From contig OZ240207.1 in NCBI GenBank assembly GCA_965197415.1, positions 2,197,853 through 2,261,852 of the forward strand: DNA of 64,000 nt, in the 5' to 3' direction. Under the pieces are notes generated by a model, which saw only the letters and a program-made list of their open reading frames with translations, was not told where the DNA came from and searched no databases. The position numbers were made by a program, and so were the translations under genes. This stretch comes from Dehalococcoidia bacterium. GTDB taxonomy: Bacteria; Chloroflexota; Dehalococcoidia; Lucifugimonadales; JAGWBF01. Positions 21,035-56,502 of the stretch are shown here, piece after piece (position 1 is the first letter of the stretch; each line of letters opens with the position of its first letter).

Positions 21035-21151
21035 CCTTGGCGGTTTTAGCGGTGCGGACCCACCCGTTCCCATCCCGAACACGGAAGTGAAACGCTCCAG
21101 CGCTCACGATACTGCTCCGGCGACGGAGTGGGAAAATAGGCCACTGCCGGG
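21035..21151 (+). rRNA. rrf: 5S ribosomal RNA (isolated copy)
   Basis: CCCACCCGTTCCCATCCCGAACACGGAAGTGAAACGCTCCAGCGC...GGGAAAATAGGCCACTGCCGGGG. The terminal helix pairs CCTTGGCGG with CCACTGCCGGGG, and a T-rich run follows. Confidence 0.9.
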
Positions 21152-21327
21152 GGGCTTTTCTTTTGTAGACAACCCGGCAAATTTTACCGCTCTCAGGCCT
21201 GGAATTGCCGCCCTCGAACCCTTCCATTTGGGGTTTAGGTGTGATAAAGTTATAGCGTTCTCATCGATTGTTAAATAATTCACATACTCACTGCCTCTGA
21301 ACACCGTAGAAAAGAAACCTCGGAACC

Positions 21328-28482: not shown

Positions 28483-28515
28483 CCCTCACCCCAACCCTCT
28501 CCCTGAGGGAGAGGG
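28483..28515. repeat. 33-nt dispersed palindromic repeat, copy A
   Basis: CCCTCACCCCAACCCTCTCCCTGAGGGAGAGGG is the exact reverse complement of 49284-49316. Confidence 0.9.
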
Positions 28516-28597
28516 AGTTTTGCTAGTGTATCTTCCTCAAGCCATGCCACCTGTCTGTTGACGCCGCAAAAAGCCGCTCCATAAACTGATATTCAAC

Positions 28598-28634
28598 GGG
28601 ACGGACCCGGGCTCCGGGTCCGTCCCCTTTTTTT
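28598..28634 (+). terminator. Strong hairpin plus T7 tract immediately upstream of the head module
   Basis: GGGACGGACCCGG-GCT-CCGGGTCCGTCCC followed by C and TTTTTTT. A sequence-related element lies at 34611-34646. Confidence 0.6.
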
Positions 28635-28647
28635 GTGGAGGGCATAC

Positions 28648-28803
28648 ATGGAATTGCATTGCCGACGCTGCGGAGATGTCCGCCTGATCAGGCTGGCTAA
28701 ACGGCTGGACAAAGACAACGAGGTCTACAGGTGCCGGGGATGCGGCTTCATCTTCAGCCCTTCTGACAGCAGTCCGACCCATGCTCCGGCGCTGGGCGCC
28801 TAG
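28648..28803 (+). CDS. Small zinc-ribbon protein (51 aa) in the position usually held by a small terminase
   Basis: MELHCRRCGDVRLIRLAKRLDKDNEVYRCRGCGFIFSP... has CxxC-x19-CxxC. GGAGGG lies 6 nt upstream. The ORF is below the track cutoff. Confidence 0.5.
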   Translation: MELHCRRCGDVRLIRLAKRLDKDNEVYRCRGCGFIFSPSDSSPTHAPALGA

Positions 28804-28812
28804 GACGGCCTG

Positions 28813-30171
28813 TTGAACAAGAAGCCATATAAATGCACCAAGCGGCACCGGGAAGACCCCGTCTATTTCGCTCGGAAAGTCCTGGGAGTGGAGCCTTGGT
28901 CAAAGCAGGTGGAGGCTCTAACCGCCGTCGCGGCTAACGAACGGGTGGCGGTGAAGTCGGGCAACGGGCTGGGAAAGGGGTTCTCGGCGGCGGCGGCAAT
29001 CCTCTGGTTCATGAGTTGCCACGAGCACGCTGTGGCGTTGAGCACGGCTCCGACCTTCAGGCAGGTCCGCCACATCCTCTGGAAAGAGGTGCACCGCCGC
29101 TACCGCAACGCCAAGTACGACCTGGGCGGGAAGTTGCTGGACACCCGCCTGGAGATGCCGGAAAGAGACAGCTTCGCCATGGGGCTGTCAGCGGACAGCC
29201 CCGATGAGTTCCAGGGTTTTCACAGCGCCAACATGCTCATAGTGGTGGATGAGGCAGAGGGAGTCGCCGAGCCCATCTACGAAGCCATAGAGGCTCTGAT
29301 GACCTCGGAGAACTGCCGGTTGCTGCTTATTGGCAACCCCACGACCGTCACCGGCTCCTTCCGCCGGGCGTTCCACGAGGACAGGGAGCTGTACCACACC
29401 ATAACTATATCGGCCTACGACAGCCCCAACGTGGCGGCGGGCGCACAGACGGTGCCCGGCCTGGTGACCGCGAGATGGGTGGAGCAGCGGCGGAAGATAT
29501 GGGGGGAGGACAACCCCATATTTCAAGCCAGGGTGTTGGGCGAGTTCCCAGAGCAGTCGGAGGACACGCTGATTCCTCTCTCCGCAATAGAAGGCGCGGC
29601 CAAGGTCTCGGGCGGGGCAGTGGAGCAGGACGACGCACCCCAGCCGACGGTGGTAGCCGTAGACGTAGCCCGGTTCGGCAGCGACAGAAGCGTAATCCTT
29701 GTGCGGCGTGGGGGCCAGGTACGACCAGTGCGGACATTCCGGGGCCTGGACACCATGAAGCTGACGGGCCTCGTGGTGGACGCCATCAAAGAGGCGGACC
29801 CGGAGGACGTGGTGGTGGACGAGGTGGGCATAGGAGCTGGAGTCGTGGACCGGCTGAAGGAACTGGGATACAGGGTGGACGGCGTGAACGTGGGACGGGC
29901 CGCCCATGACCCAAGCCGCTTTGCCAATCTTAGAGCGGAGGGATACTGGAACCTGCGCCAGATGATCACCAACGGCGAAGTGTTCCTGCCGTCGGATAAG
30001 GAATTGATGGGCGAATTGGCCGCCCTGAAGTACAGCTTCAACAGCGTCGGGCAGCTATTGGTGGAGAGCAAGGACGATATGCGCAAGAGGGGAGTCCGTT
30101 CGCCGGACAGAGCCGACGCACTAATGTTGGCCTTCCTGCCATATAGACGGAGGGTGAAGCTGTGGGGGTGA
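28813..30171 (+). CDS. Phage terminase large subunit
   Basis: Walker-A-like SGNGLGKG, Walker B LIVVDEAEGV and a C-terminal RNase H-like nuclease block VVAVDVARFGSDRSVI. TTG start. Confidence 0.85.
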   Translation: MNKKPYKCTKRHREDPVYFARKVLGVEPWSKQVEALTAVAANERVAVKSGNGLGKGFSAAAAILWFMSCHEHAVALSTAPTFRQVRHILWKEVHRRYRNAKYDLGGKLLDTRLEMPERDSFAMGLSADSPDEFQGFHSANMLIVVDEAEGVAEPIYEAIEALMTSENCRLLLIGNPTTVTGSFRRAFHEDRELYHTITISAYDSPNVAAGAQTVPGLVTARWVEQRRKIWGEDNPIFQARVLGEFPEQSEDTLIPLSAIEGAAKVSGGAVEQDDAPQPTVVAVDVARFGSDRSVILVRRGGQVRPVRTFRGLDTMKLTGLVVDAIKEADPEDVVVDEVGIGAGVVDRLKELGYRVDGVNVGRAAHDPSRFANLRAEGYWNLRQMITNGEVFLPSDKELMGELAALKYSFNSVGQLLVESKDDMRKRGVRSPDRADALMLAFLPYRRRVKLWG

Positions 30172-30199
30172 GGCTTGGGCGAAACATATCAAAGGGATA

Positions 30200-30250
30200 T
30201 CTCGGGGTGGTGTGCTTCGACAAGCTCAGCACGAACGGTATCCGAACCCC
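30200..30250. repeat. Dispersed host-type repeat (translation ...FDKLSTNG...) between terminase and portal
   Basis: GTGCTTCGACAAGCTCAGCACGAACGG was read directly. The reverse frame gives MLSLSKH..., the usual spurious ORF of this repeat family. Confidence 0.5.
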
Positions 30251-30299
30251 CCAGTTAGCCTTGGGCGAAGCGCAGTAGAAGAATCAAACGGAGGAAAGC

Positions 30300-31550
30300 A
30301 TGACAACCACAATCAAGTCCGCCAATCTGTTGCAGCACGCGCTGGGAGCGCTTGGCCGGAGGCAGGGTAAGAGCGATAACGGGCTAGGTCCCTCGCACGT
30401 TGCCAAAGCCAACCGCACCTCCCGGGTGGACGTGGACCGCTATAGCGAGACCTCGGGCGTCGGACAGGACTGGGCCAAAACGGTGTACGGGAGCTACTAC
30501 GCTTCTTCCGTGCCCGTATACTCGGCAATTCGGGTGCGGAGCGAAGCCCTGGCTCGGCCCGGCGTTACCGTGCTGGCCAGAGACGGCTCCTCGGGGTGGA
30601 TTCCGGTAAGTCCTGACCACCCGGTGCAGCAGCTTATAGACCGGGTGAACCCCTGGCACACCAGGGGCGACCTGTGGAGGGCTACAGAGACCTACCTGAG
30701 CCTGTGGGGTTCGGCCTTCTGGACGCTGGAGCCGGACGACGAGGGCCGGTGGGAAATCTGGCCTCTGCGTCCCGACCGGATGCGCGTGCTGCCAGACAGA
30801 CATCGGTACGTCAAAGGATACGTCTACATGGGAACGACAGGGCCTGTGCCGTATACGAGAGACGAGGTAATTTGGTTCCGCTACTTCAATCCCATGGACG
30901 AGTACGCCGGGCTGTCGCCAATGGCGCCCCTGCGTTTATCCGCCGACATGGGGGCGGACGCCATGCGCTTCAACCGGAACTTCTTCCGGAACTCGGCCCA
31001 GCCGGACGTCATCTTCACCACCGAGGAGGGGATGACCGACGACGAGGTGGAGGACTTTTACCAGCGTTGGGAGCGGCGGTTCAGAGGCCCGGGAAACGCC
31101 CACCGGCCCGCAATAGCCAGCTTCATAAAAGACATAAAGACCTTGGGGTTCACCCACAGGGAGATGGAGTTCGTCCAGGGCCTCCGCTGGAGCCTGGAGG
31201 ACGTGAGCCGCACCTTTGGAGTCCCCATGCCACTTCTGTCCGACTACCAGAACGCCACCTTCACGAACATCAACACAGCCGAGCGCATCTTCTGGCGCAA
31301 CACCATGATTCCGGAGATGAAGTTCCTGGAGGAGCATATCAACGAGAAGCTGCTTCCCATGCTGGGCCACTCCGCCGTCAGGGTGGAGTTTGACCTGGCC
31401 GACATCGAGGCGCTGAAAGAGGACGAGAACGACCGCGCAAACCGCGAAGCGCTGCTGCTGGACCGGGGAGTCCTCACGATAAACGAGGTGAGGCGGAGCA
31501 GAAACCTGCCCGACGTGCCCTGGGGCGACGCGCCGAGGGCCGTCCAATAA
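30300..31550 (+). CDS. Phage portal protein, HK97 family
   Basis: 416 aa, directly after TerL. The conserved central and C-terminal portal blocks (WPLRPDRM, NINTAERIFWRNTMIPE) match as remembered. Confidence 0.85.
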   Translation: MTTTIKSANLLQHALGALGRRQGKSDNGLGPSHVAKANRTSRVDVDRYSETSGVGQDWAKTVYGSYYASSVPVYSAIRVRSEALARPGVTVLARDGSSGWIPVSPDHPVQQLIDRVNPWHTRGDLWRATETYLSLWGSAFWTLEPDDEGRWEIWPLRPDRMRVLPDRHRYVKGYVYMGTTGPVPYTRDEVIWFRYFNPMDEYAGLSPMAPLRLSADMGADAMRFNRNFFRNSAQPDVIFTTEEGMTDDEVEDFYQRWERRFRGPGNAHRPAIASFIKDIKTLGFTHREMEFVQGLRWSLEDVSRTFGVPMPLLSDYQNATFTNINTAERIFWRNTMIPEMKFLEEHINEKLLPMLGHSAVRVEFDLADIEALKEDENDRANREALLLDRGVLTINEVRRSRNLPDVPWGDAPRAVQ

Positions 31551-31811
31551 GGGACCTCGAGCCGTCGCCCATCGAGATTCGGTCTTTCCGTGTTGGCCTA
31601 TGCTTGCAGGCGATGTTGGCTCCGTTACTGGTCGAGCAACCGACGCCGAAGGCTCTCCAACTCAGCACCCGGGCCTGCACGGGGTCCATTGACGATGGAT
31701 GGGGCAACCGCATCTACGTCCGGAGAGTAGGGCTTGTCCTTCGACGGACCCCTATCGGTTGCGCAAGAAAGGCTGAGCGAAGGTGATTCTGCAAGATGAG
31801 GCCGACAAGAC

Positions 31812-32045
31812 ATGAAGATGCCGACGAAGGGAACCTTTGGACACATGGGAACTGGGCTCGTGGCGGGCATCCTGATCGGACTGGGCTTTCTCCCCGAGGG
31901 ATGCGTCATCACTGGCTGGGTGGCGGTCCGGCAATCGGTTTCCTGGCTGCACAAGCGCGACGCGGTCGGAGTGGATATGATGGAGCACATGGGGGCATTG
32001 GTCCCCGCCATCATCGCGGCTCTGCTCTTCAGGGAGTTCATCTAG
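31812..32045 (+). CDS. Possible small two-TM membrane protein (77 aa)
   Basis: Two hydrophobic stretches (GLVAGILIGLGFL and ALVPAIIAALLF). No clear SD, and there is a competing antisense ORF. Confidence 0.3.
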   Translation: MKMPTKGTFGHMGTGLVAGILIGLGFLPEGCVITGWVAVRQSVSWLHKRDAVGVDMMEHMGALVPAIIAALLFREFI

Positions 32046-32429
32046 AGGCCAAAGAGATGATCCACTGGAGAATCGTCTAATTGTAGCAATGTCTTCACTT
32101 TTTTCCGTCGGCTCTCACAGACAGGTGGAGATAGGAGAGACGAAGCGACGCTTGCCAATATAGCGAGGCTATTCCAGATTACACGACATTCTATGCACAA
32201 CCGTTGGATTCGAAGACTGTGTGTTGGACAGGGAGCAATAAAACTTCAGCGGAGATTCTGGACACAGGCATTCGCCGGCATGACGACGTGAAAACAGCCC
32301 GCCGATGATAATGTCATTGCCATATGGGAACCTTTTCTTGAGCAGCTGCGTCTTGTCCATGGTGGGGCGCCTGACACGCATGTGAATGGGCCCCACAGAA
32401 GGACGTCTGTTTGACGAGGTCTGCCGAAA

Positions 32430-32882
32430 ATGAATCAGTATAAAACGGGGCTCAGAGTATTGGCGCTTAGCATCATTGGGGGACTGTTGATCCTCTTGTT
32501 GTCTATGGCCGCAGGATGCAGGGACTCTTCGGTTCCGACCACCCAACCAACATCTCCAACGGCGACGCCGGCGCCGATGCCCACAGTGGACCCAGAACTC
32601 CTTGAGAGACCGCCTCAAGGACCGGGCGCGGAAATCGGAAGCACGTACCCATACACTTTATACGTCCACTGCGGGGTCCGCGACGCTCACTTCGATGGAC
32701 GGTACTGGATGGCCGATCCAATGCTGGGCAACTACAATCCGCCGCCGGGTTGGACTTCTGACGATAGCAGGGGCACGATTGAACTGGTTAGAGATGACCT
32801 GGCCGTGTTTAAGTCCGTAAGCGGCCGCACGATCGAGTTCATACCCTGGCCATCAGATGTCGAATGGACTCCGTGCTACTAG
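32430..32882 (+). CDS. Putative lipoprotein (150 aa)
   Basis: Signal peptide ending in the lipobox LSMAAGC. Confidence 0.6.
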   Translation: MNQYKTGLRVLALSIIGGLLILLLSMAAGCRDSSVPTTQPTSPTATPAPMPTVDPELLERPPQGPGAEIGSTYPYTLYVHCGVRDAHFDGRYWMADPMLGNYNPPPGWTSDDSRGTIELVRDDLAVFKSVSGRTIEFIPWPSDVEWTPCY

Positions 32883-32948
32883 TCACTACGGGCAGAGAAC
32901 CACCCTTTTCGGGCGTCGTGAGGGCACACAGAGCGGCATGCGGTCCCT

Positions 32949-34400
32949 TCACTGGTCGAGCAGCTTGCCACGCAAGTTCTCAAACTCGGTTACTGCTCCA
33001 GCCCGTGCGCTGCCTTTCCAGTAGCCGGTGAACACCCCGATGTAACCGGGGTGAGACACGGAGCTGATGTCTATGTTGCCCCCAACCTGCTGGCCGTTTA
33101 TGTACAGGTTCGCGACGTTGCCAACCGTTCTCAATTTAACGTGGTTCGTCGACCCCGCCCCTGTCTGAATCGTTGATAAGGTCCCCCTCGCCAAGTGAGT
33201 GAAATATGGCTCCTGAAAAGCAACTTTGGACACTAGCCACTCTTGCCTGCTGTCAATCACAAACTTGATGTGGGGCAGCTTTCCCTCCTCGTCATCGTCG
33301 CTGCTGTCTGGGTCATAGCGGGCGGTTAATCCGTAGGACCACAGCTGTGTGCTGGCCGAGTATGGATTGGTAAAGGTTGCCTCGAGTTCTATATCAGCCC
33401 GCCCGTAGATATAGTTCAAATTGAACTCGCGTTGCACTATATTGGTATCGTCGGGTTGGTGGCGAAGCTCGCCAGAGATGTCCTCGAAAACGAACTCGCC
33501 GCCGGGCGTCATCAGTGCGTCCATGTGCTCCTGTATCGTCGCAACGGCTGCTCCATAACTCAGTCCATACCGGGGACGTTCGTCGCGCCCCTGCTCTGAA
33601 CGGGAATGAATGATGCCTGCTATAAGACCGTCGGCGGACAATATGGGGCCGCCGCTGTTGCCAGGATTGCTGGCGGCGTCGGTTTGCAGGATTATGCTAG
33701 CTCGGCTCCAGCGATATCGAATCGCTGAGACTATTCCCTTGGTCACCGTTGCCGTATCGTAGGACAACGGGTCCGGGTAGCCCATGACCGCCACGTCGTC
33801 TCCGACAGTGACGTCATCCGGCTCAGCAAAGTCCAAGGCCGTGAAGTCGTCGCAGCATATAGTGACCACGGCCAAGTCGCGAATTGGGTCAGCTCGCAGC
33901 AAAGTGGCAATGTACCACTCTCCGTCGTCGGTCCGGACCATCCAACCCTCGCCCTCATTGTCGTCCACGACGTGGGAGTTGGTCATCACGTACCCAGTCT
34001 GATCCTCTGCCTGGAAGATGACTCCGCTGCCTCCGTGATTGCCGCCGGTGTTCCAGACGTACACCACCGCCGGGCGCACATCCTCGATGACCTCGCTGAG
34101 GGGCCGAGTGAGCGACTCTGCCGGCAGCACGTCCTCCACCGAGGGAACAGGGTCTCCGCTGAAGTAGTACTGGACAATGACCAGGACCTGGTCTCTGGTG
34201 ATGACACCCGCGAAGTAGTCGGCGACGGCGGTTATCACCTCGTCCCTGTCAATCACGCCGTTGCCGTTTGAGTCGTAGAAGGGGCTGACATCCGGGTCTG
34301 AGCCTTGGGCCGTAGTCACGGCCAGACCGGCCAGGGCCAGCATGACCATGGCCAATACGGACGCCAGGGGAATAGCAAGCCTGCCAGTCACTGTCACCAT
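32949..34400 (-). CDS. Secreted trypsin-like (S1) serine protease with an EF-hand/dockerin-like N-terminal motif and a C-terminal beta-rich domain
   Basis: Signal or TM anchor, then DSNGNGVIDRDEVITAV, His context TNSHVV, and the active-site Ser context NPGNSGGPIL. About 170 aa of C-terminal extension of unknown fold follow. Confidence 0.8.
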   Translation of the reverse strand: MVTVTGRLAIPLASVLAMVMLALAGLAVTTAQGSDPDVSPFYDSNGNGVIDRDEVITAVADYFAGVITRDQVLVIVQYYFSGDPVPSVEDVLPAESLTRPLSEVIEDVRPAVVYVWNTGGNHGGSGVIFQAEDQTGYVMTNSHVVDDNEGEGWMVRTDDGEWYIATLLRADPIRDLAVVTICCDDFTALDFAEPDDVTVGDDVAVMGYPDPLSYDTATVTKGIVSAIRYRWSRASIILQTDAASNPGNSGGPILSADGLIAGIIHSRSEQGRDERPRYGLSYGAAVATIQEHMDALMTPGGEFVFEDISGELRHQPDDTNIVQREFNLNYIYGRADIELEATFTNPYSASTQLWSYGLTARYDPDSSDDDEEGKLPHIKFVIDSRQEWLVSKVAFQEPYFTHLARGTLSTIQTGAGSTNHVKLRTVGNVANLYINGQQVGGNIDISSVSHPGYIGVFTGYWKGSARAGAVTEFENLRGKLLDQ

Positions 34401-34610
34401 TGAGTCTCCGATGGGTGATTACGAGCGTGGTAATGGGGGGGCAACCTACGGATGCATTCTACCCTGCTTCATGCTTTTCGGAAACCAGAAGGGACAGGGA
34501 CTTGTAGGGGGGTGACATCGTCCCGTTGACCGCTTGAGAGTTGGCGGGTTAGCCTGAATTTGGAGCGTCACAAAAGGCCGGATTGCCAGCCCGGCCGCTT
34601 CAGAGCCAAA

Positions 34611-34646
34611 GGGACAGACCCTGAGTTGGGTCTGTCCCTCTTTTTT
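34611..34646 (+). terminator. Hairpin plus T6 tract upstream of the prohead protease (paralogue of 28598-28634)
   Basis: GGGACAGACCC-TGAGTT-GGGTCTGTCCC followed by TC and TTTTTT. Confidence 0.6.
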
Positions 34647-34695
34647 GCCCTGGCCCCGGAAGAGCGAAAACTAAATCGGAAGGGAGGCGCCCTGC

Positions 34696-35400
34696 ATGAA
34701 CGACATAGAGCAATGGGAACGGGAACGGCTGTTGGAGTCGCTGGACTCATACCGGCGGGGACTCAGCGACGCGCCCTATTTGCGGAAGTGGACCTCGGTC
34801 GCGGCCGCCGGTGAATCCGTCTCAGCTCCGGCCTTTCCGCAAGCGTCAGCAACGGACGCCGGAGAGCAGCAAATGGCGTTCGTCGTTTCCAACGACGACG
34901 TAGACCGCCACGGCGACGTGATTTCGCTGCAGGGATGGCGTCTCCAGTCCTATCTCAAGAACCCGGTGTTCCTGTGGGCCCACGACTACACCAGGCCTGC
35001 CATAGGCCGCACGAGGGAGCTGTGGGCCGAGGGGAACAACCTCGTGGCGCGGGTGCAGTTCGCACCAACAGACTTTGCCCGGGAGGTGGCCGCCCTCTAC
35101 CGGGACGGCTACCAGCGGGGCGTGTCGGTGGGTTTCAGGCCCATCAAGTACGAGCTGCGGAGGGACGCGGACACGGGCAAGGCGTTGGGTGTGCGGTTCT
35201 TGGAACAGGAACTGCTGGAGATAAGCGCGGCTCCCGTTCCGGCCAACCAGGGCGCCCTGAGGAAGGCCTTGAGCCGCTCGCCAAGGATGGAGGCCTATTA
35301 CGCCAGCCTGGGACTGGAGGAGATGGACCGGGTCCCCTGGGACGACGCCTTGCGGCAGGTAGTGGAGAGCCTACGGTTTGTCGCCCACCCCGCTGCTTAG
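34696..35400 (+). CDS. HK97-family phage prohead protease
   Basis: FVVSNDDVDRHGDVI...NPVFLWAHDY...PIG block. GGGAGG lies 9 nt upstream. The N-terminal extension is about 60 aa. Confidence 0.85.
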   Translation: MNDIEQWERERLLESLDSYRRGLSDAPYLRKWTSVAAAGESVSAPAFPQASATDAGEQQMAFVVSNDDVDRHGDVISLQGWRLQSYLKNPVFLWAHDYTRPAIGRTRELWAEGNNLVARVQFAPTDFAREVAALYRDGYQRGVSVGFRPIKYELRRDADTGKALGVRFLEQELLEISAAPVPANQGALRKALSRSPRMEAYYASLGLEEMDRVPWDDALRQVVESLRFVAHPAA

Positions 35401-35469
35401 GCGTCCCGGAAGAGCGACGAGGGACATTGGGAAACGGAAGGACAAAACTTACAAACTCAAGGAGGAGAG

Positions 35470-36804
35470 ATGACCATCAGCGCTCAAGACTTGGACCTAA
35501 TCAAGAAGGAAGTGGCCGGTGTGCGGGAGTTCTACAACGCCCGCATCGATAGTGAGCTTCCTCCGCTCAAGGAGGAGGTGAGCCGAGTTTCGGCCCAGAT
35601 TGCCCGCATCCGGGAGATGTGGAAGAACGGAGAGAAGCAGGCGCTCCTGGGCAAGTACGGCGGACAGGACCGGCCCAGGGTGCCCTATGGGAAGTACCAG
35701 GGCCTGGACTTGCTGGACCTGGCCTACATGCGGAGTCTGCTCAACGCCCAGATACGCCAACCCCTGGGCCTGAACCCTCGAATGCTGGAGGAGTGGCAGT
35801 CGAACCTGAAGGCGGCCATGGACTCCACCACTGCCGGCTCAGGGGATGAACTGGTACCCACCCAGGAAGCCTCGACCCTCTGGATGGACGTGAACCTGGA
35901 GACCATGGTGGCTCCGCTGTTCTCCAGGGTGGATATGCCCTCGGACCCCTTCGAGATACCGCTTCAGCTGGGCGACGTGAACTGGTATCCCGGCACCGAG
36001 AACCTGGCCGTGACCGCAACGGCGCTGAACACCGCCAAGCAGACGCTGACTTCATACGAGCTGGTGGGCCAGGTGCCCTGGTCCCTGACGTTGGACGAGG
36101 ACGCGGTGATTGCCATGGCCCAAGAGGTGCGCAGCGGGCTGGTGCGCAACGCCGCGGAGGTAATCGACGACGTGGTCCTCAACGGCGATGCGACGACGGT
36201 GAACAACATCAACGCTGACGAAGCCACCATATCAAAGTCCGACGTGGGCAAGGGACACTGGCTCTTGGGATTCGACGGGCTGCTTCATCTGCCGCTGGTG
36301 GACAACACCGGCCAGGCCAACGACCATAGCGCCGCCGTGTCCGACGGCATGTTCAACGAAGTGCGGGGCAAGCTCGGCAAGTACGGTGTGCGGCCGTCCG
36401 AACTGGCCTACCTCATGGACGTGAACACGTACATCCGGGCCTTGAGCGTGGACAACTTCCGCACACTGGACAAGCTGGGACCCAACGCCACTGTGCTCAG
36501 GGGACAGCTTGGCGCGGTTGAAGGGATCCCTGTCATCGTGTCGGAGCAGATGAAGCTCGCGGACACGGACGGACAAGTGACCGACGCAGGAAACGTGACA
36601 AACACCGGACGCCTGCTCATCGTTAACCGGTCCCAGTGGAGGGTCGGTTTCAGGCGGGAGCTGGCCATAGAAACGGACAGGGACATCCAAAAGCGGCAGA
36701 ACATCATGGTTGTGAGCCTGAGGATCGCCTTTGCCGAGCGAACGGGAAGCAGGTCCACGGCAACCCACACAGCTTTGCAGTACAACATAACGGGCGTGGC
36801 GTAG
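35470..36804 (+). CDS. HK97-family phage major capsid protein with an N-terminal coiled-coil (delta-like) region
   Basis: 444 aa in the position after the protease. The C-terminal block is LIVNRSQWRVGFRRELAIETDRDIQKRQNIMVVSLRIAF. Confidence 0.9.
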   Translation: MTISAQDLDLIKKEVAGVREFYNARIDSELPPLKEEVSRVSAQIARIREMWKNGEKQALLGKYGGQDRPRVPYGKYQGLDLLDLAYMRSLLNAQIRQPLGLNPRMLEEWQSNLKAAMDSTTAGSGDELVPTQEASTLWMDVNLETMVAPLFSRVDMPSDPFEIPLQLGDVNWYPGTENLAVTATALNTAKQTLTSYELVGQVPWSLTLDEDAVIAMAQEVRSGLVRNAAEVIDDVVLNGDATTVNNINADEATISKSDVGKGHWLLGFDGLLHLPLVDNTGQANDHSAAVSDGMFNEVRGKLGKYGVRPSELAYLMDVNTYIRALSVDNFRTLDKLGPNATVLRGQLGAVEGIPVIVSEQMKLADTDGQVTDAGNVTNTGRLLIVNRSQWRVGFRRELAIETDRDIQKRQNIMVVSLRIAFAERTGSRSTATHTALQYNITGVA

Positions 36805-36846
36805 ACCGCCGCGCCCACCGGGACTCTGCAATCCAAGGAGAAACGC

Positions 36847-37299
36847 GTGGCCAACCCGTCAAAAGACAGCCCCCTGGCCGAGCAGGTGAAGGACATGCTC
36901 ACCTCGGACGTCGCTCCTGCGGCCCTGAAGTGCGCCAAGGCTTCCCTGGGGAGCTCCGATGCCAGAGGAGGGGTGTTGGCCTGGCGAAACCCGGAGGCCG
37001 GTCCAATCATCGTGGTCCGGTTGGTCATAGACCGAACTGCCGGTTCCAGCGCCGCGTGCACCGTAGACTTCGGGGCCGCTTCCCGAGGGAACCGGTCATC
37101 GGACGACCTGATCGACGGACTGGACGTGAACGCCGCAAAGGGTGTGGAAGACAACATCGACCACACAGGGACCAACGGCAAGTCCATGCAGCGGCTGGAC
37201 GCCAAGGGCGGCAGGACGGACTACATCACCGGCAGTAAGGCGACAGGCGAGGCCACCGGACTTGCCGGCCACGCCTATATCTTCTACGTAGAAGTGTAG
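36847..37299 (+). CDS. Hypothetical protein in the head module (150 aa, GTG start)
   Basis: Co-directional ORF in the position of decoration or head-completion genes. No motif was recognised. Confidence 0.5.
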   Translation: MANPSKDSPLAEQVKDMLTSDVAPAALKCAKASLGSSDARGGVLAWRNPEAGPIIVVRLVIDRTAGSSAACTVDFGAASRGNRSSDDLIDGLDVNAAKGVEDNIDHTGTNGKSMQRLDAKGGRTDYITGSKATGEATGLAGHAYIFYVEV

Positions 37300-37386
37300 C
37301 GCAGGTCGCCGCCGCCATCTCCAGGACCTTGAGACCGATTTACCGGCTCCTTCCCTGAAACGGGAAGGAGCCGCGCGGAGGCTGCT

Positions 37387-38235
37387 ATGACCAACGCTTA
37401 CGCTGACCTGACGACTCTGAAATCGGCGGGCGTCCTGAACATATCAGGCGCCGCCTACGATTCCAGGCTGCTGGACCTTCTGGAGGCGGTGTCCAGGCTC
37501 ATCGACCACTACTGCAACCGGCGGTTCTATGTTGTGGAGGAGTCCCGATTCTTCGACGGCGACGGAGGGAAGGAGCTAGGAGTCCCCGACCTGATAAACG
37601 TAACCTCGCTCAGGACGGACGATGACCGAGACCGAACCTTCGAGGCAATATGGGCTGTTACTGACTATCTGCTCTATCCGCCAAACGCTCGACCAGACAA
37701 GCCCTGGGGCCGCCCCTATACCAGGGCGCTGGTGGATGTGGACGCGGGCAGCAAGACTCTCTTCCCCGCGGGACTCCGAACGGTGGAGGTGAACGGCAAG
37801 TGGGGATACAGGGAGGTTACGGAAGACACCGGCGCCGCTATAAACCAAGGAGCCGAGCTGTCGGCGGACGCCACCGCCGTTACGGTCACCGCCGCCGCGA
37901 ACCTATCAGCAGGCCAGACTCTCTCGATAGACAGTGAGCAGCTTTACGTCACTGAAGTATCAGTCAGCGAACTGACTGTCGTCCGGGGTGTGAACGGAAC
38001 GGCGGCAACGGCTCACTTTGACGTCTCGCCCATCGCTAGGCTGGTATACCCCAACGGGGTCGCCGAGGCCTGCCTTATACAGGCGTCTCGCCTGTGGAAG
38101 CGGCGGGACGGAGGCTTCCCAGCAGCGGAACAGCGTCGGACCAGGCTGGGCGGCGTGTCCAAAGCCTTGGACCCGGACGTGGCGCTGCTCCTGGCGGCCT
38201 ACCGCAAGAACCCGGTGGGAGGTCAGGGATGGTAG
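37387..38235 (+). CDS. gp6-like head-tail connector protein, unusually long (282 aa)
   Basis: N-terminal YADLTTLKSAGVLNI...DSRLLDLLEAVSRLIDHYCNRRF is typical of gp6-like connectors. Confidence 0.6.
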   Translation: MTNAYADLTTLKSAGVLNISGAAYDSRLLDLLEAVSRLIDHYCNRRFYVVEESRFFDGDGGKELGVPDLINVTSLRTDDDRDRTFEAIWAVTDYLLYPPNARPDKPWGRPYTRALVDVDAGSKTLFPAGLRTVEVNGKWGYREVTEDTGAAINQGAELSADATAVTVTAAANLSAGQTLSIDSEQLYVTEVSVSELTVVRGVNGTAATAHFDVSPIARLVYPNGVAEACLIQASRLWKRRDGGFPAAEQRRTRLGGVSKALDPDVALLLAAYRKNPVGGQGW

Positions 38236-38663
38236 CTCCAACGTCGGGGGAACTCAAAGCCATCATCGACGAGATGGCGGCCCAATTGGGGACGGTGGAA
38301 GGCCTTCGAGTGTACAATCACCCGCCGGACTGCATCCAGGAGTTTCCGGCGGCGGTGATACGAGACCTCCAGGCCTCCAACCACTCGGCGGCGGCGGAAT
38401 ACCGGGCCACCGACCCTCAATCGGTTTATAACCTGGAGGTGCTGGTCCTGGTTGACTTGTCCGACGATGCCGAAGCCTACGCAGAGCTGGAAAAGTATGT
38501 GTCAGCCAACAGTCCCTCTTCCGTAAAGAGCCTGATGCGCAGGGTCATCCTGGAAGGACTGCCTGCGGCCGAGTGCGTCAAGGCCGAGCCGAGGCGCAAG
38601 CATAAAATCGGCGGCGCCGAGCTGTGGGGATGCTCTTTCTGGGTGCAGTCCCTGGTCTATTGA
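38229..38663 (+). CDS. Hypothetical phage-module protein (144 aa), last gene of the module
   Basis: Start ATG 38229 overlaps the upstream stop (ATGGTAG). This is the position of head-completion or tail-terminator genes. No motif was recognised. Confidence 0.5.
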   Translation: MVAPTSGELKAIIDEMAAQLGTVEGLRVYNHPPDCIQEFPAAVIRDLQASNHSAAAEYRATDPQSVYNLEVLVLVDLSDDAEAYAELEKYVSANSPSSVKSLMRRVILEGLPAAECVKAEPRRKHKIGGAELWGCSFWVQSLVY

Positions 38664-38784: not shown

Positions 38785-40389
38785 TTGATTTTCGTCTTGG
38801 CAGTCTTGCGTCCGATACTGGGGTTGGTCCTTGCTGTAGTCGTTATCGTCGGGTTCCTGTGCTTTGTGGTTGTCAGCGGCTTCCGCAGCAATTTCCTGTC
38901 CGCCGATTTCTACGCCGAGAACATCTCTGAGAATTCAGTCTACGACCGGATTTATGACGAGGTCCTGCTGGACCCGGAGTTTGAGAAGCAAACAGACTAT
39001 CTGGTGGCCGGAGTCGAAGTCCCCCATGAAGATGTCGTGGAAGTCACGCGAAGCATCCTTCCCCCAGCGTATCTACAGGAACAAGTAGAGAAAGCCCTCG
39101 CGGGCGCCCTCGACTACCTGAATCGGGACTCGGACGAGGCTCTCGTATTCATCGAACTGGATACCCCCATAGACAACATCAAGCCCACCGTCCTCGCCTA
39201 CATCGACCGGCGCATCGACGAGATTCCCACCAAGGAGGTTGAGGACGTCGAAGAGATGGCGGACGAGTTGGCCGCCCTCTGGAAGGGGCTTGAAGAGGGC
39301 GAGCCTCCTCAAACTATCCCCGCGCTTCGGGACCCGTCATCCCTGAACAACAGCATCGCTGACTTTATCTTTGACCGAGCAATCGAGGAACTGGAGTCCG
39401 ACCCTGGGTTCCCCCAATCAGGCATCGACGGCCTGCTAAAGCAGGAAGACGCCATTAAGAAGTCCCTTGTCGCTGTCGACACGAAGGGTGTGCTCAAAAC
39501 GGCGGCATCTACAATCGCCACCCCGGTCATCAACAGAGCGCTTTCGGAAACCGTCGACGAGATTCCAACCAAGGAGGTCGACGGCGCCGTCGAGATGGCG
39601 GAGGAGCTGGCCTTTTTGTGGACGGAGCTAGCAGAGGGACGGATTCCTGAGACCATCCCGGAACTGCGTGGCCCCACGTCCCTGAGCGACAGCGTCGCTG
39701 ACCTGATCTTCGACCGAGCTATCGAAGAACTGGAGGCCGAACCCGAGTTCCCGCGCTCAGCCGTCAACGCTCTGCTGGAACAGGAGACCGCCATCAAGCT
39801 CCCGTTAGCGGACGGAGACATAAAAGGGGCGCTGAAAACGACGGCGGCCACCATTGCGGGCCCAGTCATAGACGAAGCAATCCAGGAGTTCGTGGAAGAG
39901 GAACTTGACGAAGACCGCCGCCTGGACCTGGTGGAGGTCGCCGCTGACGCCGATGACAAGACGCGGGAGGAATTTCTGGACGATCTGGAACCGGCCAGGG
40001 ACTATATCTCGACGACTCGACTGGGATTGACGCTGACCATAGTCGCCGTGGTTGTGGGATGCTTGCTGCTGGGCGCCTTGCAATATCCTCGCATGGCGTC
40101 TCTGTTCCGTATCCCAGGCATCGTCCTGTTCATCAGCGGCGCCATAGCGCTGATTATCTCCATAGTGGTGAAGACAGCGATTGAGAGTTTGTTGAACAAC
40201 ATCGTCATTGATGAACCGGATATACCCACAAGCATCGTCGACATCGTCTCGGATGTGTTCTCGTCCATGTCTTCAGACATGGTATCGGGAACTATTCCGA
40301 TAGCTGCGACGGCGATGGGAGTGGGCCTGGCATTGTTCGTGGTCTCGTTTTTTATAAGGAAGCTGCCCATCCCCATCTTCAGCCGCTAG
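38785..40389 (+). CDS. Membrane protein with an internal 113-aa tandem duplication
   Basis: N-terminal TM and three or more C-terminal TM segments. The two repeats start DEIPTKEV... at nt 39217 and 39556. TTG start. Confidence 0.65.
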   Translation: MIFVLAVLRPILGLVLAVVVIVGFLCFVVVSGFRSNFLSADFYAENISENSVYDRIYDEVLLDPEFEKQTDYLVAGVEVPHEDVVEVTRSILPPAYLQEQVEKALAGALDYLNRDSDEALVFIELDTPIDNIKPTVLAYIDRRIDEIPTKEVEDVEEMADELAALWKGLEEGEPPQTIPALRDPSSLNNSIADFIFDRAIEELESDPGFPQSGIDGLLKQEDAIKKSLVAVDTKGVLKTAASTIATPVINRALSETVDEIPTKEVDGAVEMAEELAFLWTELAEGRIPETIPELRGPTSLSDSVADLIFDRAIEELEAEPEFPRSAVNALLEQETAIKLPLADGDIKGALKTTAATIAGPVIDEAIQEFVEEELDEDRRLDLVEVAADADDKTREEFLDDLEPARDYISTTRLGLTLTIVAVVVGCLLLGALQYPRMASLFRIPGIVLFISGAIALIISIVVKTAIESLLNNIVIDEPDIPTSIVDIVSDVFSSMSSDMVSGTIPIAATAMGVGLALFVVSFFIRKLPIPIFSR

Positions 40390-44976: not shown

Positions 44977-45218
44977 CGTCGAATTCCAGAATGCGGGCTA
45001 CGTTCCCAATATACCATGTGTGATTGCACTTAGAGGTAGCGCGTTACGAAAAACGGAACATCAGCTTATTTGTACTAAACTAACATTAGAACATATCTCA
45101 GAATTATACTATGTTCGACGCCAATTTTGGTCCGGCGGCAGTTTTCAACGATTACCGCCTTGACAGCCCTTTCTATACCGCCCTTATCCTTTTTTACATA
45201 ACCTCTACAGGCCTTCAC

Positions 45219-46577
45219 ATGACCGACATCAAAGCTGTAAATGGATGGAAAGCCGCGCTTGGCGAGTTGCAAGTGCGTGTGGACAGACACGTCTTCGACA
45301 CATGGCTCAGAGATACCCGGGGCCTCTCCATCGAACGGGGAGTCTTGCTGGTGGGAGTGGCCACTCCCTTCTCTATTGAGTGGCTGGAGAGGCGAATGTA
45401 CCCCACCATTCGGGAGACTGTGCAGAGGGTCGTGGACGGGGCCCTGGACGTGGAGTTCAGATCCACGCCGGTCCTGGACACCGCCCGGTCTCCACTGGAG
45501 CATGCCCGGTCCGGCGCCGCCAACGGCCGCCGACCGGGCCAGTCTTCGTGGTCGGGACTTAACCGACATTACACCTTCCCTCGCTTCGTCGTGGGGTCGT
45601 CCAATCGGCTGCCCTACTCCGCGGCGATGACAGTGGCGGAGACCCCGGAGAACGCGTTCCAACCCTTGTTCATACATTCCCCGGCGGGGCTGGGGAAGAC
45701 CCACTTGTTGCAGGCCATCGGCCATACCTCCATCGAGCGAGGAGACCGCATCCTCTATGTGACCGCAGAGCAGTTCACCAGCGAGTTCATCGCCGCCATA
45801 CGCTCCAGGTCCACCGACGATTTCCGTGCAAAGTACAGAAGCGTGGACGTGCTTCTGGTGGACGACGTTCAGTTTCTTGCCGGCAAGGAGCAGACGCAGG
45901 AGGCCTTCTTCCACACCTTCAACGACCTCTACAACTCCTCAGGCCAGGTGGTGCTTGCGTCGGACAGGCCGCCTAGGGACTTCCTGGACCTGGAAGACAG
46001 GCTTCGCTCCCGGTTTGAGTGGGGTCTCACGGCGGACATATGCGTCCCCGACATGGAGACCCGCGCTGCTATCCTTCGTAACAAGGCTAGCGATATGTCC
46101 GTCTCTTTAGAGGAGCCCGTACTCCACTACGCAGCCAACTATCCGTATCGCAACGTCAGAGAGCTGGAGGGCTGCCTGAATCGAATCGTCGCGATGGCGA
46201 GGCTGTACAACTCTCCCATCACCATGGACCTAGTCGCTCAGGCCATCGCAGACCTGTTGCCCGACTTCACACGCGCCGCCGTCGGTCCTGAAACGATACT
46301 AGAACAAGTTGGCCTCCGCTTCTCCGTCGGACGTGAGAACTTGATTGGCACCAGCCGGAAAAAGGGCGTTCTGGAGCCCCGGAGAATAGCCATGTATCTC
46401 ATGCACGAAGAGCTTGCCATGAGCGACACAGACATAGGAAGGCTCATGGGCGGTCGCAACCACTCTACTGTCATCAGCGCTCTCTCTAAGGTCAATCGTT
46501 CACTGCACACAGACTCTGCAATCAAGAACCACATCATAGCCATAAAGGAAGCCCTCATAAGCGGCGCTCCCGACTAA
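45219..46577 (+). CDS. dnaA: Chromosomal replication initiator protein DnaA
   Basis: FDTWL domain I, AAA+ GLGKTHLL, LLVDDVQFL and the C-terminal DnaA signature (PRRIAMYL...GGRNHSTV). Confidence 0.9.
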   Translation: MTDIKAVNGWKAALGELQVRVDRHVFDTWLRDTRGLSIERGVLLVGVATPFSIEWLERRMYPTIRETVQRVVDGALDVEFRSTPVLDTARSPLEHARSGAANGRRPGQSSWSGLNRHYTFPRFVVGSSNRLPYSAAMTVAETPENAFQPLFIHSPAGLGKTHLLQAIGHTSIERGDRILYVTAEQFTSEFIAAIRSRSTDDFRAKYRSVDVLLVDDVQFLAGKEQTQEAFFHTFNDLYNSSGQVVLASDRPPRDFLDLEDRLRSRFEWGLTADICVPDMETRAAILRNKASDMSVSLEEPVLHYAANYPYRNVRELEGCLNRIVAMARLYNSPITMDLVAQAIADLLPDFTRAAVGPETILEQVGLRFSVGRENLIGTSRKKGVLEPRRIAMYLMHEELAMSDTDIGRLMGGRNHSTVISALSKVNRSLHTDSAIKNHIIAIKEALISGAPD

Positions 46578-49283: not shown

Positions 49284-49316
49284 CCCTCTCCCTCAGGGAG
49301 AGGGTTGGGGTGAGGG
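49284..49316. repeat. 33-nt dispersed palindromic repeat, copy B (inverted)
   Basis: CCCTCTCCCTCAGGGAGAGGGTTGGGGTGAGGG sits between the convergent pyrE and gyrB genes. Confidence 0.9.
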
Positions 49317-49317
49317 T

Positions 49318-51246
<1,929 letters not shown>

Positions 51247-56421: not shown

Positions 56422-56502
56422 GCAGTCCCCTCCTCGCCTCTCCGGAGCTTCTCCGGCCACCATCTGCAGTATACGCAGAACGTCCGTCTACCAGATCGTC
56501 TA

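Follow-up and report, generated by a model that had tools for sequence, protein, structure and literature searches.

The head and DNA-packaging genes found in the window (i.e., the whole 64-kb stretch of DNA that was analysed) are probably an anciently domesticated, GTA-like remnant of an HK97-fold siphovirus, known from its genes alone and kept as a cellular gene set. The module presents phage capsid and packaging genes that hosts have kept and that are more conserved than their housekeeping neighbours. To our knowledge, no GTA is known in the Chloroflexota, and the module is likely a new GTA-like system of this group. A large Dehalococcoidia clade (SAR202 and its relatives) would retain these siphovirus head genes, with an origin independent of known GTAs. 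Among the options raised by an earlier note on this DNA, that of a domesticated GTA-like element fits the purifying selection, the fixed syntenic locus and the host genes between the parts of the module.

The element would comprise a packaging unit (Zn-ribbon protein, large terminase and portal) and a head/neck unit (prohead protease, capsid, 150-aa accessory protein, adaptor and tail-terminator-like protein). The features are distributed as follows.

28545 to 28587, plus strand: promoter-like motif of the packaging unit (TGCCA-N9-TTGACG-N18-TAAACT; promoter scan)
28593 to 28637, plus strand: leader hairpin with T-run, copy 1 (GGGACGGACCC-GGGCTCC-GGGTCCGTCCC, then CTTTTTTT)
28648 to 28803, plus strand: Zn-ribbon ORF, 51 aa, CxxC...CxxC, conserved directly 5' of TerL
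28813 to 30171, plus strand: TerL, large terminase with ATPase and nuclease (phrog_2, 1.8e-40)
30300 to 31550, plus strand: portal (PF04860, 3.4e-66)
31551 to 34512, no strand: host insert between the units, outside the element (PF13365 in the HtrA ORF; GC drop)
32430 to 32882, plus strand: lipoprotein-like ORF in the insert
32949 to 34400, minus strand: HtrA/trypsin-like protease in the insert (PF13365, 2e-27)
34513 to 34555, plus strand: promoter-like motif of the head unit (TGACA-N9-TTGACC-N18-TAGCCT)
34606 to 34649, plus strand: leader hairpin with T-run, copy 2 (AGGGACAGACCC-TGAGTT-GGGTCTGTCCCT, then CTTTTTT)
34696 to 35400, plus strand: prohead serine protease, S78 (PF04586, 9e-9; phrog_80, 7e-20)
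35470 to 36804, plus strand: major capsid protein, HK97-fold (PF05065, 32.3 bits against a cut-off of 24.2 bits; phrog_10, 3e-16)
36847 to 37299, plus strand: 150-aa conserved ORF (ortholog conservation, without family match)
37387 to 38235, plus strand: head-tail adaptor (phrog_442, 8e-13)
38229 to 38663, plus strand: tail-terminator-like neck protein, 144 aa (phrog_17840, 8.6e-9)
38785 to 40389, plus strand: 534-aa membrane protein, membership in the element uncertain (TM prediction)

The head genes are full-length at the coordinates first proposed for them, present no internal stops and are matched by Pfam and PHROGs profiles. In TerL, Walker A Lys55, Walker B Glu147 and nuclease Asp284/336/435 are invariant in the family and its phage relatives. 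The portal has more than 1000 homologs, with 61-94% identity for the top 120. The capsid protein has a scaffold-like N-terminal region of about 115 aa, and the solved structures nearest to its profile in the PDB are the 458-aa major head protein chains 8ho3/8zvi and 5tjt. The proposed gp6-like connector is an adaptor according to phrog_442, its gp6-like part being N-terminal and followed by an additional C-terminal domain; between 47 and 62 related loci contain it, according to the method and the set of loci used. Ortholog alignment agrees with the ATGGTAG overlap as the start of the next ORF, which is translationally coupled to the adaptor through it, and the two are fused in P0392 and L002. 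This 144-aa protein belongs to a tail-terminator-like family of which 20/20 members are matched by phrog_17840 (best 2.7e-22), and a fold search with a low-confidence model gave lambda gpU matches that are concordant but not significant.

The 150-aa protein, listed as an unknown in the earlier note, indeed returned no match in family and PDB profile searches, yet its gene is kept in 21 to 31 related genome loci (range by BLAST, clustering and HMM) and in many IMG/VR fragments. It is predicted to be all-beta, and its poor AF2 model (pLDDT 52) gave no significant match in a fold search; it may decorate the capsid or serve as an accessory protein. The Zn-ribbon ORF, which the earlier note does not name, keeps its place beside TerL in 11 loci; its product measures 67 aa in L081 and L082, and a family search with it returned nothing informative. 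No small terminase (TerS) is recognisable in the 64-kb window, and the Zn-ribbon protein may take its place or assist TerL.

The two units are physically separable. The insert of about 3.1 kb, in which GC falls to 0.56 and whose content differs among the closest relatives, occupies the same portal/protease junction at which other lineages present 16-31 kb of host genes between the Zn-ribbon-TerL-portal unit and the protease-capsid unit. Portal and TerL are 31 kb from the capsid gene in OY763929.1 and 16 kb from it in OZ219860.1, in both cases on the same chromosome and the opposite strand with host genes between; twelve capsid/portal pairs, matched by the length of their contigs, appear to share a contig.

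Both units are preceded by a leader with the same order, i.e., a sigma-70-like promoter with a TGACA element on its 5' side, a GC hairpin with a T-run, and a ribosome-binding site. The extended promoter motif occurs only twice in 64 kb, before the packaging unit and before the protease gene. The packaging-unit motif is conserved in L001, L002 and L004, a similar one lies 5' of the TerL unit in L081, and almost all lineages examined present TGACA-N~10-TTGAC(A/C)-N17/18-TAnnnT at 16-106 nt 5' of the hairpin. The covariance model R1 matches the window only at 34606 and 28593: copy 2, 57 nt from the protease ATG, scores 55 bits, and copy 1, which is outside the training set and 11 nt from the Zn-ribbon start codon, scores 37.3 bits (E 3.5e-9) and scores as a terminator too. 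The R1 hairpin is located 5' of the protease in 76/80 related loci, regardless of the upstream host gene, with compensatory changes at two pairs of the stem, and the stretch of about 170 nt from promoter to protease ATG is almost invariant in the window and L001-L004. The stem palindrome is not unique to the element, as it is also present in unrelated metagenome contigs. What had been described as host-type dispersed repeats inside the module is the promoter-hairpin leader of the element itself, present twice; the module genes contain no copy of the host REP-like hairpin CCTCTCCC..GGGAGAGG, which is found at 5453, 28496 and 49285.

Judging from this architecture, the units are probably controlled by terminator read-through. 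The lambda late operon is governed by pR'-tR' with Q anti-termination, and the leaders resemble the lambdoid arrangement in having, ahead of head genes, a constitutive-looking promoter with an intrinsic terminator within a few to about 100 nt; the resemblance does not go beyond architecture, and no gene similar to Q was found. Transcription would start constitutively and end at the leader hairpin, and read-through would need a trans-acting factor. Working like Q at tR' in lambda or GafZ on CcGTA, this factor would coordinate the physically separated units. Capsids processed by the protease would form on the portal, TerL would load them with DNA, and the adaptor and terminator-like protein would seal the portal.

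The module is spread widely. A search with the capsid gene of the GTDB collection of one genome per species gave 264 matching stretches (a count of stretches rather than a prevalence), and the best 80 of these 264 come from 80 different Dehalococcoidia/SAR202/Chloroflexota MAGs at 71-100% identity. Protein clusters exceed 1500 for the capsid and 1000 for the portal, and each genome examined has a single copy of the module. It is kept intact in at least 80, and probably several hundred, Dehalococcoidia species. The protease adjoins the capsid gene in 77/80 loci. The host flanks named earlier, radA and cysteine synthase, are syntenic in relatives: the order ClpC-RadA-protease-capsid of L061, L068, L074 and L076 equals the radA side of the window, and CysK-ThiF lies downstream of the module in eight loci. 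A few relatives have broken genes (the L012 portal contains an in-frame stop, and TerL is split in L082), which may be assembly errors.

The long residence under selection proposed in the earlier note is borne out by these 80 genomes with common flanks, by the host genes between the parts, and by substitution rates. The dN/dS is 0.023-0.037 for the capsid, 0.036-0.05 for TerL and 0.057-0.088 for the portal; these values of 0.02-0.09 are as low as those of CysK (0.025-0.045), and dS of the module genes equals that of the host flanks. Presence in one strain only with neutral substitution is thus not what was found. The terminator-like protein presents 0.05-0.085, the 150-aa protein 0.09-0.19, and the adaptor 0.16-0.22 against L003 and L004 (against L002 the value is too high owing to a frameshifted end), in comparison with 0.15-0.24 for the host L25. 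Pairwise capsid identity correlates with host-neighbour identity and is higher: the capsid presents 82%, against 72% for GGT, 75% for CinA and 69% for FtsJ, and it reaches 73% where RadA has 60-63%. These values indicate that the module is probably vertically inherited.

In comparison with the GTAs of Alphaproteobacteria, RcGTA (Rhodobacter capsulatus) and CcGTA (Caulobacter crescentus), the module presents the same phage-derived order of TerL, portal, protease, HK97 capsid, adaptor and terminator, and is likewise chromosomal, vertical, under purifying selection, without replication or integration genes, and dispersed in its parts. The hairpins ahead of its units recall the CcGTA cluster, in which terminators within or ahead of the cluster require GafZ anti-termination (PMC11150451), although no GafA/GafYZ homolog was identified. 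The module differs in belonging to the Chloroflexota, in being known from genes alone, in lacking tube, tape measure, hub and megatron at its locus, and in having the Zn-ribbon protein in place of the TerS-like g1. Given that the capsid profile matches 8ho3/8zvi/5tjt and has no match to the RcGTA virion 6TBA at E <= 0.01, an origin independent of RcGTA is suggested. Deposited phages reach at best 23% identity for the capsid and 26-31% for the portal. The closest phage-like relatives found are the uncultured siphovirus-like contig L125 (IMGVR_UViG_3300008216_000113) and its group, with 50% capsid, 49% portal and 38% TerL identity and the same order of large adaptor, terminator-like and major-tail-like genes. 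However, in L125 the portal is fused to a head-morphogenesis domain, and the contig additionally encodes a DNA methyltransferase, Neck1, a tape measure and two major tail genes. It has no promoter-hairpin leader and resembles a genuine virus or prophage.

Profile searches of the ORFs found no tail tube, tape measure, baseplate, holin or endolysin in the 64-kb window, so the particles would be tail-less DNA-filled heads or would be completed by genes elsewhere or by tails in trans. The claim that tail genes are missing stands for tube, tape measure, baseplate and lysis, but not for the terminator-like ORF. A rather unlikely alternative is that the heads are finished by tails in trans, the module being a fixed and immobile counterpart of capsid-forming PICIs (cf-PICIs): released tail-less DNA-filled capsids would dock through the adaptor/terminator-like interface onto free tails of co-occurring siphoviruses. 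The gene content is that of the cf-PICI packaging set (HK97-type capsid, protease, portal, adaptor, connector and TerL, without tail or lysis genes), and the terminator-like gene is under purifying selection with no tube gene nearby. Moreover, protease and capsid are constant across lineages, whereas the neck genes change at a higher rate and are exchanged between lineages; the particles released by cf-PICIs are DNA-filled capsids with no tail (10.1101/2025.02.11.637232; PMC10085698), and their tail compatibility is set by adaptor and connector (10.1101/2025.02.11.637232). However, cf-PICIs are mobile islands of 10-18 kb that package themselves and carry an integrase, an alpA/merR regulator, a primase-replicase, HNH and TerS. 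This mobile half is absent here, no integrase accompanying the module and the window having no replication, regulator (alpA/merR), primase-replicase, HNH or TerS genes, and the Dehalococcoidia locus is vertically inherited, syntenic across species and split by host genes. There is also no sign that any DNA is packaged preferentially, compatible phages are not known, and some sister lineages still have genes for a tube-like and a 680-aa tail-tip-like protein.

Those sister-lineage genes, a major-tail-like gene (phrog_10528) and the 680-aa protein after the terminator-like gene, favour another reading, a complete GTA with tail, lysis and regulator genes at other chromosomal loci, like the scattered accessory loci of RcGTA, and only the head and packaging loci in the window. 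The conserved terminator-like gene, the 16-31 kb between units in other genomes and the precedent of scattered loci under one activator/anti-terminator (PMC11150451) are consistent with it. We nevertheless consider it unlikely, given that no homolog of the sister-lineage tail-like genes is present in the 64-kb window, and that no tape measure or baseplate was found in the 80 related genome loci (+/-10 kb), only in phage-like L125.

Neck gene content varies by lineage, some loci having only protease and capsid within 10 kb, and the neck may therefore be unnecessary, or the lineages may differ in what the module does. Since no pair other than protease and capsid is universally linked, the capsid is extremely conserved and tail and lysis genes are missing, repurposing as a protein/DNA compartment, as an anti-phage decoy titrating or mis-packaging phage DNA, or as a DNA-disposal device could be considered. 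This is quite improbable, however, as TerL and portal are retained on the capsid gene's chromosomes with intact catalytic residues and low dN/dS, which argues for DNA translocation into a portal-bearing head rather than an encapsulin-like shell.

A decaying prophage remnant or recently spread mobile satellite with no host function would suit the phage origin, the integrase fragment in the window and the many capsid-bearing IMG/VR fragments that are labelled viral, but is extremely improbable given the core-gene-like dN/dS, the one locus per genome with common host flanks in 80 genomes, a capsid more conserved than its housekeeping neighbours, and the interspersed host genes. Both corresponding options of the earlier note were rejected, the capsid-forming satellite because integrase, replication and regulator genes are missing from a fixed, syntenic, single-copy locus, and the well preserved prophage remnant because of purifying selection and phylogenetic breadth. 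IMG/VR contigs with capsid matches of at least 49% identity measure 4-32 kb (nearly all below 17 kb), and those of at least 66% identity present module genes only. Broken integrases had been reported about 20 kb off behind housekeeping genes; a single one was found, an N-terminal fragment (59053-59793) adjoining tRNA-Ala, 20 kb from the module behind dnaA and gyrB.

The remaining large ORFs of the window are all host genes (RecG, arg genes, ClpC, RadA, CysK, ThiF, L25, Fmt, DnaA, Obg, GyrB and others). The 534-aa membrane protein, which matches no Pfam or PHROG family, is predicted to have an N-terminal TM segment, a duplicated acidic helical region (internal repeat 39215-39459 / 39554-39798 in the gene) and C-terminal TM segments. 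Its gene adjoins the module in 19-23 loci, minimal protease-capsid loci included.

The ORFs that the earlier note had listed for the head module are all present without internal stops, and its head-gene calls were upheld by profile searches against Pfam and PHROGs. One gene was missing from that list, a Zn-ribbon ORF directly upstream of the large terminase (TerL) gene. The genes are as follows.

28648-28803: 51-aa Zn-ribbon ORF (CxxC...CxxC)
28813-30171: large terminase TerL (phrog_2, 1.8e-40)
30300-31550: portal (PF04860, 3.4e-66)
34696-35400: S78 prohead protease (PF04586, 9e-9; phrog_80, 7e-20)
35470-36804: HK97-family major capsid protein (PF05065, 32.3 bits against a cut-off of 24.2; phrog_10, 3e-16)
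36847-37299: 150-aa protein
37387-38235: head-tail adaptor (phrog_442, 8e-13)
38229-38663: 144-aa tail-terminator-like ORF (phrog_17840, "tail terminator", in 20/20 family members, best 2.7e-22)
38785-40389: 534-aa membrane protein

The Pfam matches of the module (capsid PF05065, S78 protease, portal PF04860) all lie above the curated cut-offs and, together with a TerL carrying ATPase and nuclease motifs, they are the components that define an HK97-fold Caudoviricetes head module. All lineages, and the phage relatives too, keep the Walker A lysine, the Walker B glutamate and the nuclease aspartates of TerL. The module is an intact phage-derived set of head, packaging and neck genes, which can be physically dispersed and which carries a conserved common leader.

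Neither Pfam nor PHROGs gave a match for the 150-aa protein, the 534-aa membrane protein, the Zn-ribbon protein or the lineage-specific small genes cl18, cl22, cl25 and cl31, and a family search with the Zn-ribbon protein returned neither TerS nor HNH. PDB profile searches with the 150-aa and 144-aa proteins returned nothing meaningful. AlphaFold2 models built from shallow alignments were poor (pLDDT 54.6 for the terminator-like and 52.3 for the 150-aa protein), and fold searches with them gave no match at E <= 0.001: the low-confidence model of the 150-aa protein drew generic beta-sandwiches only, and that of the terminator-like protein ranked lambda gpU first at E 0.03, which agrees with PHROGs and is no evidence by itself. 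The adaptor and terminator-like genes are fused in the homologous protein P0392 and in the closely related locus L002 (11915-13171), giving about 420 aa with loss of the ATGGTAG stop/start overlap. Given these fusions, the two proteins may act as one unit at the portal, or the junction may be prone to frameshifts. Since the 534-aa membrane protein accompanies the protease-capsid pair in 19-23 loci, minimal loci included, a functional link to the element is possible. Within its ORF, about 245 nt are duplicated at 75% identity (39215-39459 and 39554-39798), which corresponds to a repeated acidic helical segment.

The remaining large ORFs of the window are all host genes, including RecG, FakA, Rpe, ArgH/G/D/B/J, a Type ISP restriction enzyme, ClpC, DUF429, RadA, a QueG/RdhA-like Fe-S protein, CysK, ThiF, L25, Fmt, DnaA, Obg, an NadD-like protein and GyrB. 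Within the 64 kb, no gene was found for a tube, tape measure, baseplate, holin or endolysin. The statement that tail genes are absent accordingly holds for these functions and has to be amended for one tail-interface gene, the terminator-like one. The 3.1-kb gap between portal and protease has lower GC, and contains a lipoprotein-like ORF and a minus-strand trypsin/HtrA-like protease.

The module proved to be widespread. Homologs of the capsid fall into more than 1500 protein clusters, of which the best 120 are at 74-99% identity, many on megabase contigs; the portal has a matching spread (more than 1000 clusters, top 120 at 61-94%). In a collection with one genome per species, 264 stretches encode a capsid relative, and the best 80 of these come from 80 different Dehalococcoidia/SAR202/Chloroflexota MAGs, at 71-100% identity, ocean and sponge MAGs among them. 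The nearest species representative of the window is the MAG Dehalococcoidia bacterium OZ244780.1. Deposited phages reach at most 23% identity in the capsid and 26-31% in the portal.

The synteny comparison that the earlier note had called for finds ClpC-RadA-protease-capsid, the arrangement on the radA side of the window, in four distant genomes. The protease and capsid genes are adjacent in 77/80 genome loci, and CysK-ThiF follow downstream, as in the window, in 8 loci. The dN/dS values it had also asked for are well below 1 for TerL, portal and capsid, with dS equal to that of the flanks, as presented in the following table.

Table. dN/dS against the three closest relatives (dS 0.17-0.87, unsaturated).
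Capsid: 0.023-0.037
TerL: 0.036-0.05
Portal: 0.057-0.088
Terminator-like protein: 0.05-0.085
Protease: 0.08-0.16
150-aa protein: 0.09-0.19
Adaptor: 0.16-0.22
Flanking host genes at the same dS: CysK 0.025-0.045; ThiF 0.07; L25 0.15-0.24; Fmt 0.15-0.17

A value of 0.46 for the adaptor against L002 could be taken for positive selection, and is an artefact of a frameshifted C-terminus. Over all pairs of loci, the median identity of the capsid is 82%, versus 72% for GGT, 75% for CinA and 69% for the FtsJ-type methyltransferase, its neighbours in the same genomes. Rank correlations between the identity of the capsid and that of the host neighbours are positive, and in pairs whose RadA is 60-63% identical the capsid is 73% identical. 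These values indicate a module that is old, fixed in the chromosome, vertically inherited and under selection as strong as that on core genes. Broken genes do occur in relatives: TerL is split into ORFs of 350 aa and 93 aa in L082, the locus of a distant relative's TerL unit (8626-9971, OZ219860.1), and the portal of the related locus L012 is interrupted by an in-frame stop. Both cases reflect either errors of long-read assembly or occasional decay confined to a lineage.

The packaging and head units are not always neighbours. Only the window's wider clade has Zn-ribbon-TerL-portal at 10 kb or less from the capsid (11 loci). In 12 capsid/portal pairs the two genes share a contig, as judged from its length. 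In OY763929.1 and OZ219860.1, a trio of a 67-aa protein, TerL and portal is found about 31 kb and about 16 kb from the capsid, respectively, on the opposite strand and with host genes between. Given these separate trios, the portal-protease junction, which holds the 3.1-kb insert in the window, is the place of the split elsewhere. The content downstream of the capsid also varies by lineage, with four types: the 150-aa protein, adaptor, terminator-like and 534-aa protein, as in the window; adaptor, terminator-like, a major-tail-like protein (phrog_10528) and a 680-aa beta-rich protein; the 150-aa protein with four small unknowns and the adaptor; and nothing recognisable within 10 kb. The window has no homologs of the downstream genes specific to the other lineages.

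What the separated units share is a leader. Two similar hairpins, each with a T-run, came out of a terminator scan; they lie at 28598-28626 and 34610-34639, immediately preceding the Zn-ribbon/TerL unit and the protease/capsid unit, respectively. A covariance model (R1) trained on the hairpins upstream of the protease from 46 loci was run on the window with filters off, and yielded two significant sites only: the training copy at 55 bits and the TerL-unit copy, which is independent of the training, at 37 bits (E 3.5e-9). The third-best score in the window was 16 bits. Across 1.57 Mb of related loci, R1 matches the plus strand just upstream of the protease in 76/80 genome loci, irrespective of the upstream host gene; three of the four loci lacking a match there have no upstream sequence. 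It also matches the TerL-unit site in the close relatives L001, L002 and L004, plus one stray site.

The hairpin is preceded at 16-106 nt, in nearly every lineage, by TGACA-N~10-TTGAC(A/C)-N17/18-TAnnnT. This extended promoter motif occurs in the window exactly twice, at 28545-28587 and 34513-34555, and elsewhere in the window the core motif belongs to tRNA promoters. The window and L001-L004 hardly differ over the stretch of roughly 170 nt between the -35 element and the protease ATG, and the sequence farther upstream is unalignable. The TerL unit of the distant genome locus L081 has the same promoter-hairpin layout with a diverged hairpin. At the two stem positions left free in the selection pattern, 12 and 5 double (compensatory) changes were found, with few broken pairs. 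A double-stranded DNA operator was rejected as the role of the hairpin on the compensatory stem changes and on the loop length, which varies from about 3 to 10 nt and for that reason favours a hairpin in the transcript.

A metagenome scan for the palindrome returned at least 120 contigs from unrelated organisms, one of those listed having it beside module genes, and gave no further members of the regulon. The palindrome GGGACAGACC..GGTCTGTCCC also recurs in tandem, with a period of some 46-66 nt, in L202 (10127-10247), L214 (5248-5318), L235 and L256, which are unrelated, mostly high-GC metagenome contigs without module genes; it is apparently a widespread REP-like repeat family. Given this occurrence in unrelated contigs, the stem sequence alone is non-specific, and specificity lies in promoter, hairpin and T-run combined.

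Viral contigs bear on the origin of the module. IMG/VR contigs with a capsid at >=49% identity are 4-32 kb long, nearly all below 17 kb, and the next group, at about 30%, consists of longer phage contigs. L125, an IMG/VR contig whose capsid is 50% identical, encodes a methyltransferase, TerL, a portal-MuF fusion, protease, capsid, adaptor, terminator-like protein, two major tail proteins, Neck1 and a tape measure; it is a real siphovirus-like cluster and shows the kind of ancestor involved. Four other IMG/VR contigs (L108, L109, L111 and L121; capsid 59-63%) form a sister group with permuted gene orders, for example adjoining adaptor and portal upstream of protease-capsid, or a major-tail-like protein, a 680-aa protein, adaptor and portal downstream. 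The leader hairpin is absent from this sister group, as the leader is from the IMG/VR groups with 50-64% capsid identity, and the group possibly represents another branch of the element that evolves on its own.

Taken together, the element appears to be an independently domesticated, split, apparently tail-less system resembling gene transfer agents (GTAs). Like GTAs, it consists of chromosomal phage-derived structural and packaging genes without replication, integration or lysogeny genes, all its neighbours are host genes, and it is vertically inherited under purifying selection (synteny, dS equal to the flanks, dN/dS 0.02-0.2, the best 80 of 264 stretches in 80 genomes). Within the 64-kb window, it differs in lacking a host-encoded complete particle with tail and lysis function. 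At the level tested, with the head genes g2-g8 as the criterion, no homology to the Rhodobacter capsulatus GTA (RcGTA) family was detected: the capsid alignment retrieved from PDB only the chains 8ho3/8zvi and 5tjt, its closest solved capsids (458-aa major head protein chains), the RcGTA virion 6TBA did not match the capsid profile at E <= 0.01, and the low-confidence terminator-like model reached only E 0.23 against 6tba_4A.

Another candidate is a capsid-forming phage satellite (cf-PICI), defined here according to 10.1101/2025.02.11.637232 and PMC10085698 as an island of 10-18 kb with integrase/recombinase, alpA/merR regulation, primase-replicase, HNH and TerS. The capsid, protease, portal, adaptor, connector and TerL are present, and tail and lysis genes absent, as in such satellites. 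All of the listed mobile-element genes are, however, absent between radA and cysK, and instead of variable presence, att-site insertion and near-identical copies in different species, the locus is fixed and syntenic, with a divergence that follows host genes. In gene content the element corresponds to the packaging half of a cf-PICI, but it has none of the mobile-element genes and is not mobile, and the synteny and selection data argue against a mobile satellite. An encapsulin, i.e., an HK97-fold shell with a cargo-loading partner and without portal, terminase or protease, does not fit, given that the element retains a conserved portal, TerL and prohead protease and that its capsid matches PF05065 rather than the encapsulin family. 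A decaying prophage is ruled out by the synteny, the low dN/dS, the capsid conservation and the invariant TerL motifs.

Under the GTA-like reading, homology suggests that protease-matured HK97-type capsids would assemble on the portal, TerL would pump DNA into them, and closure would fall to the adaptor and the terminator-like protein. The architecture of the leader suggests transcription from a housekeeping-type promoter, gated at the leader terminator, which may give coordinated, rare expression of the separated units, similarly to lambda Q/tR' or to GafZ, which acts on transcription gating (anti-termination) in the Caulobacter GTA cluster (PMC11150451). Given the window has no tube, tape-measure, baseplate or lysis genes, three readings of delivery arise: tail genes may lie at other sites in the genome, the heads may be genuinely tail-less, or they might be finished by foreign tails, as cf-PICI heads are (10.1101/2025.02.11.637232).

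We tentatively propose, at slightly less than an even chance, that a whole clade at class level, comprising SAR202 and other Dehalococcoidia sampled from oceans, sponges and further metagenome sources, has long kept a tail-less capsid and DNA-packaging machine, with a capsid tighter than housekeeping genes and with scattered parts tied by a shared promoter and leader-terminator switch. We presume a retention of possibly hundreds of millions of years. Well-supported or bona fide GTAs are known in few lineages (Alphaproteobacteria, Bartonella, Brachyspira, Desulfovibrio and Methanococcus), and our literature search on GTA, capsid or HK97 in Chloroflexi, Dehalococcoidia and SAR202 found no prior description. 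If true, Chloroflexota would gain their first GTA-like system, one of a new type that evolved independently and would export DNA in heads that act without a tail or borrow the tails of environmental phages.

In the dark ocean, few bacteria are more abundant than SAR202 and other Dehalococcoidia, which are also common in sediments and sponges; to our knowledge, little is known of their gene exchange. A capsid kept at 71-100% identity in at least 80 species genomes, beyond RadA and other core genes, suggests that a virus-derived particle has a cellular function under strong selection. If it moves DNA, the element would provide these populations with a major route of gene flow that has gone unrecognised, and it would also confound viromics, given that IMG/VR already lists many such loci as viruses. 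The split, tail-less layout and shared promoter-terminator leader offer a motif for finding the regulon, an anti-termination switch open to test and a minimal head system for structures. Such experiments are feasible since SAR202 strains are in culture (PMC10444878).

Some features of the window lie outside the module. A REP-like intergenic hairpin, CCTCTCCC-N3-GGGAGAGG, occurs at 5453-5471, 28496-28514 and 49285-49303, versus zero copies expected by chance, with one copy about 100 bp before the module. It is a genuine host-type dispersed repeat, and similar hairpins occur in the related loci L030 and L039; the earlier note had placed such repeats inside the module, a view rejected here since all three copies are outside it. 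The module probably lies near the replication origin of this genome, given it is only about 6.5 kb from dnaA (45111-46577); gyrB is at 49318-51246 (minus strand), and GC dips to 0.55 at 45-47 kb. The stretch 16256-20433 (+), probably a small defence island, encodes a 1108-aa Type ISP restriction-modification enzyme (PF18135, N6_Mtase) and a 284-aa unknown protein, with GC down to 0.56. Between this low-GC region and clpC lies a lone 5S rRNA gene (21036-21152, +); the 64-kb window has no 16S or 23S rRNA. The only integrase of the window, where the earlier note had two broken ones, is an N-terminal fragment (59053-59793) with the arm-binding and central domains only, beside tRNA-Ala (58845-58920). 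In the region 56347-59793, tRNA-Met precedes a pair of 65-nt direct repeats (56502 and 56640) and, after these, a Fic/DOC gene (56737-57867). Together with a tandem duplication at 61809-62357 (period of about 300 nt, 96-99% identity), these features look like the leftover of an unrelated island at tRNA-Ala.
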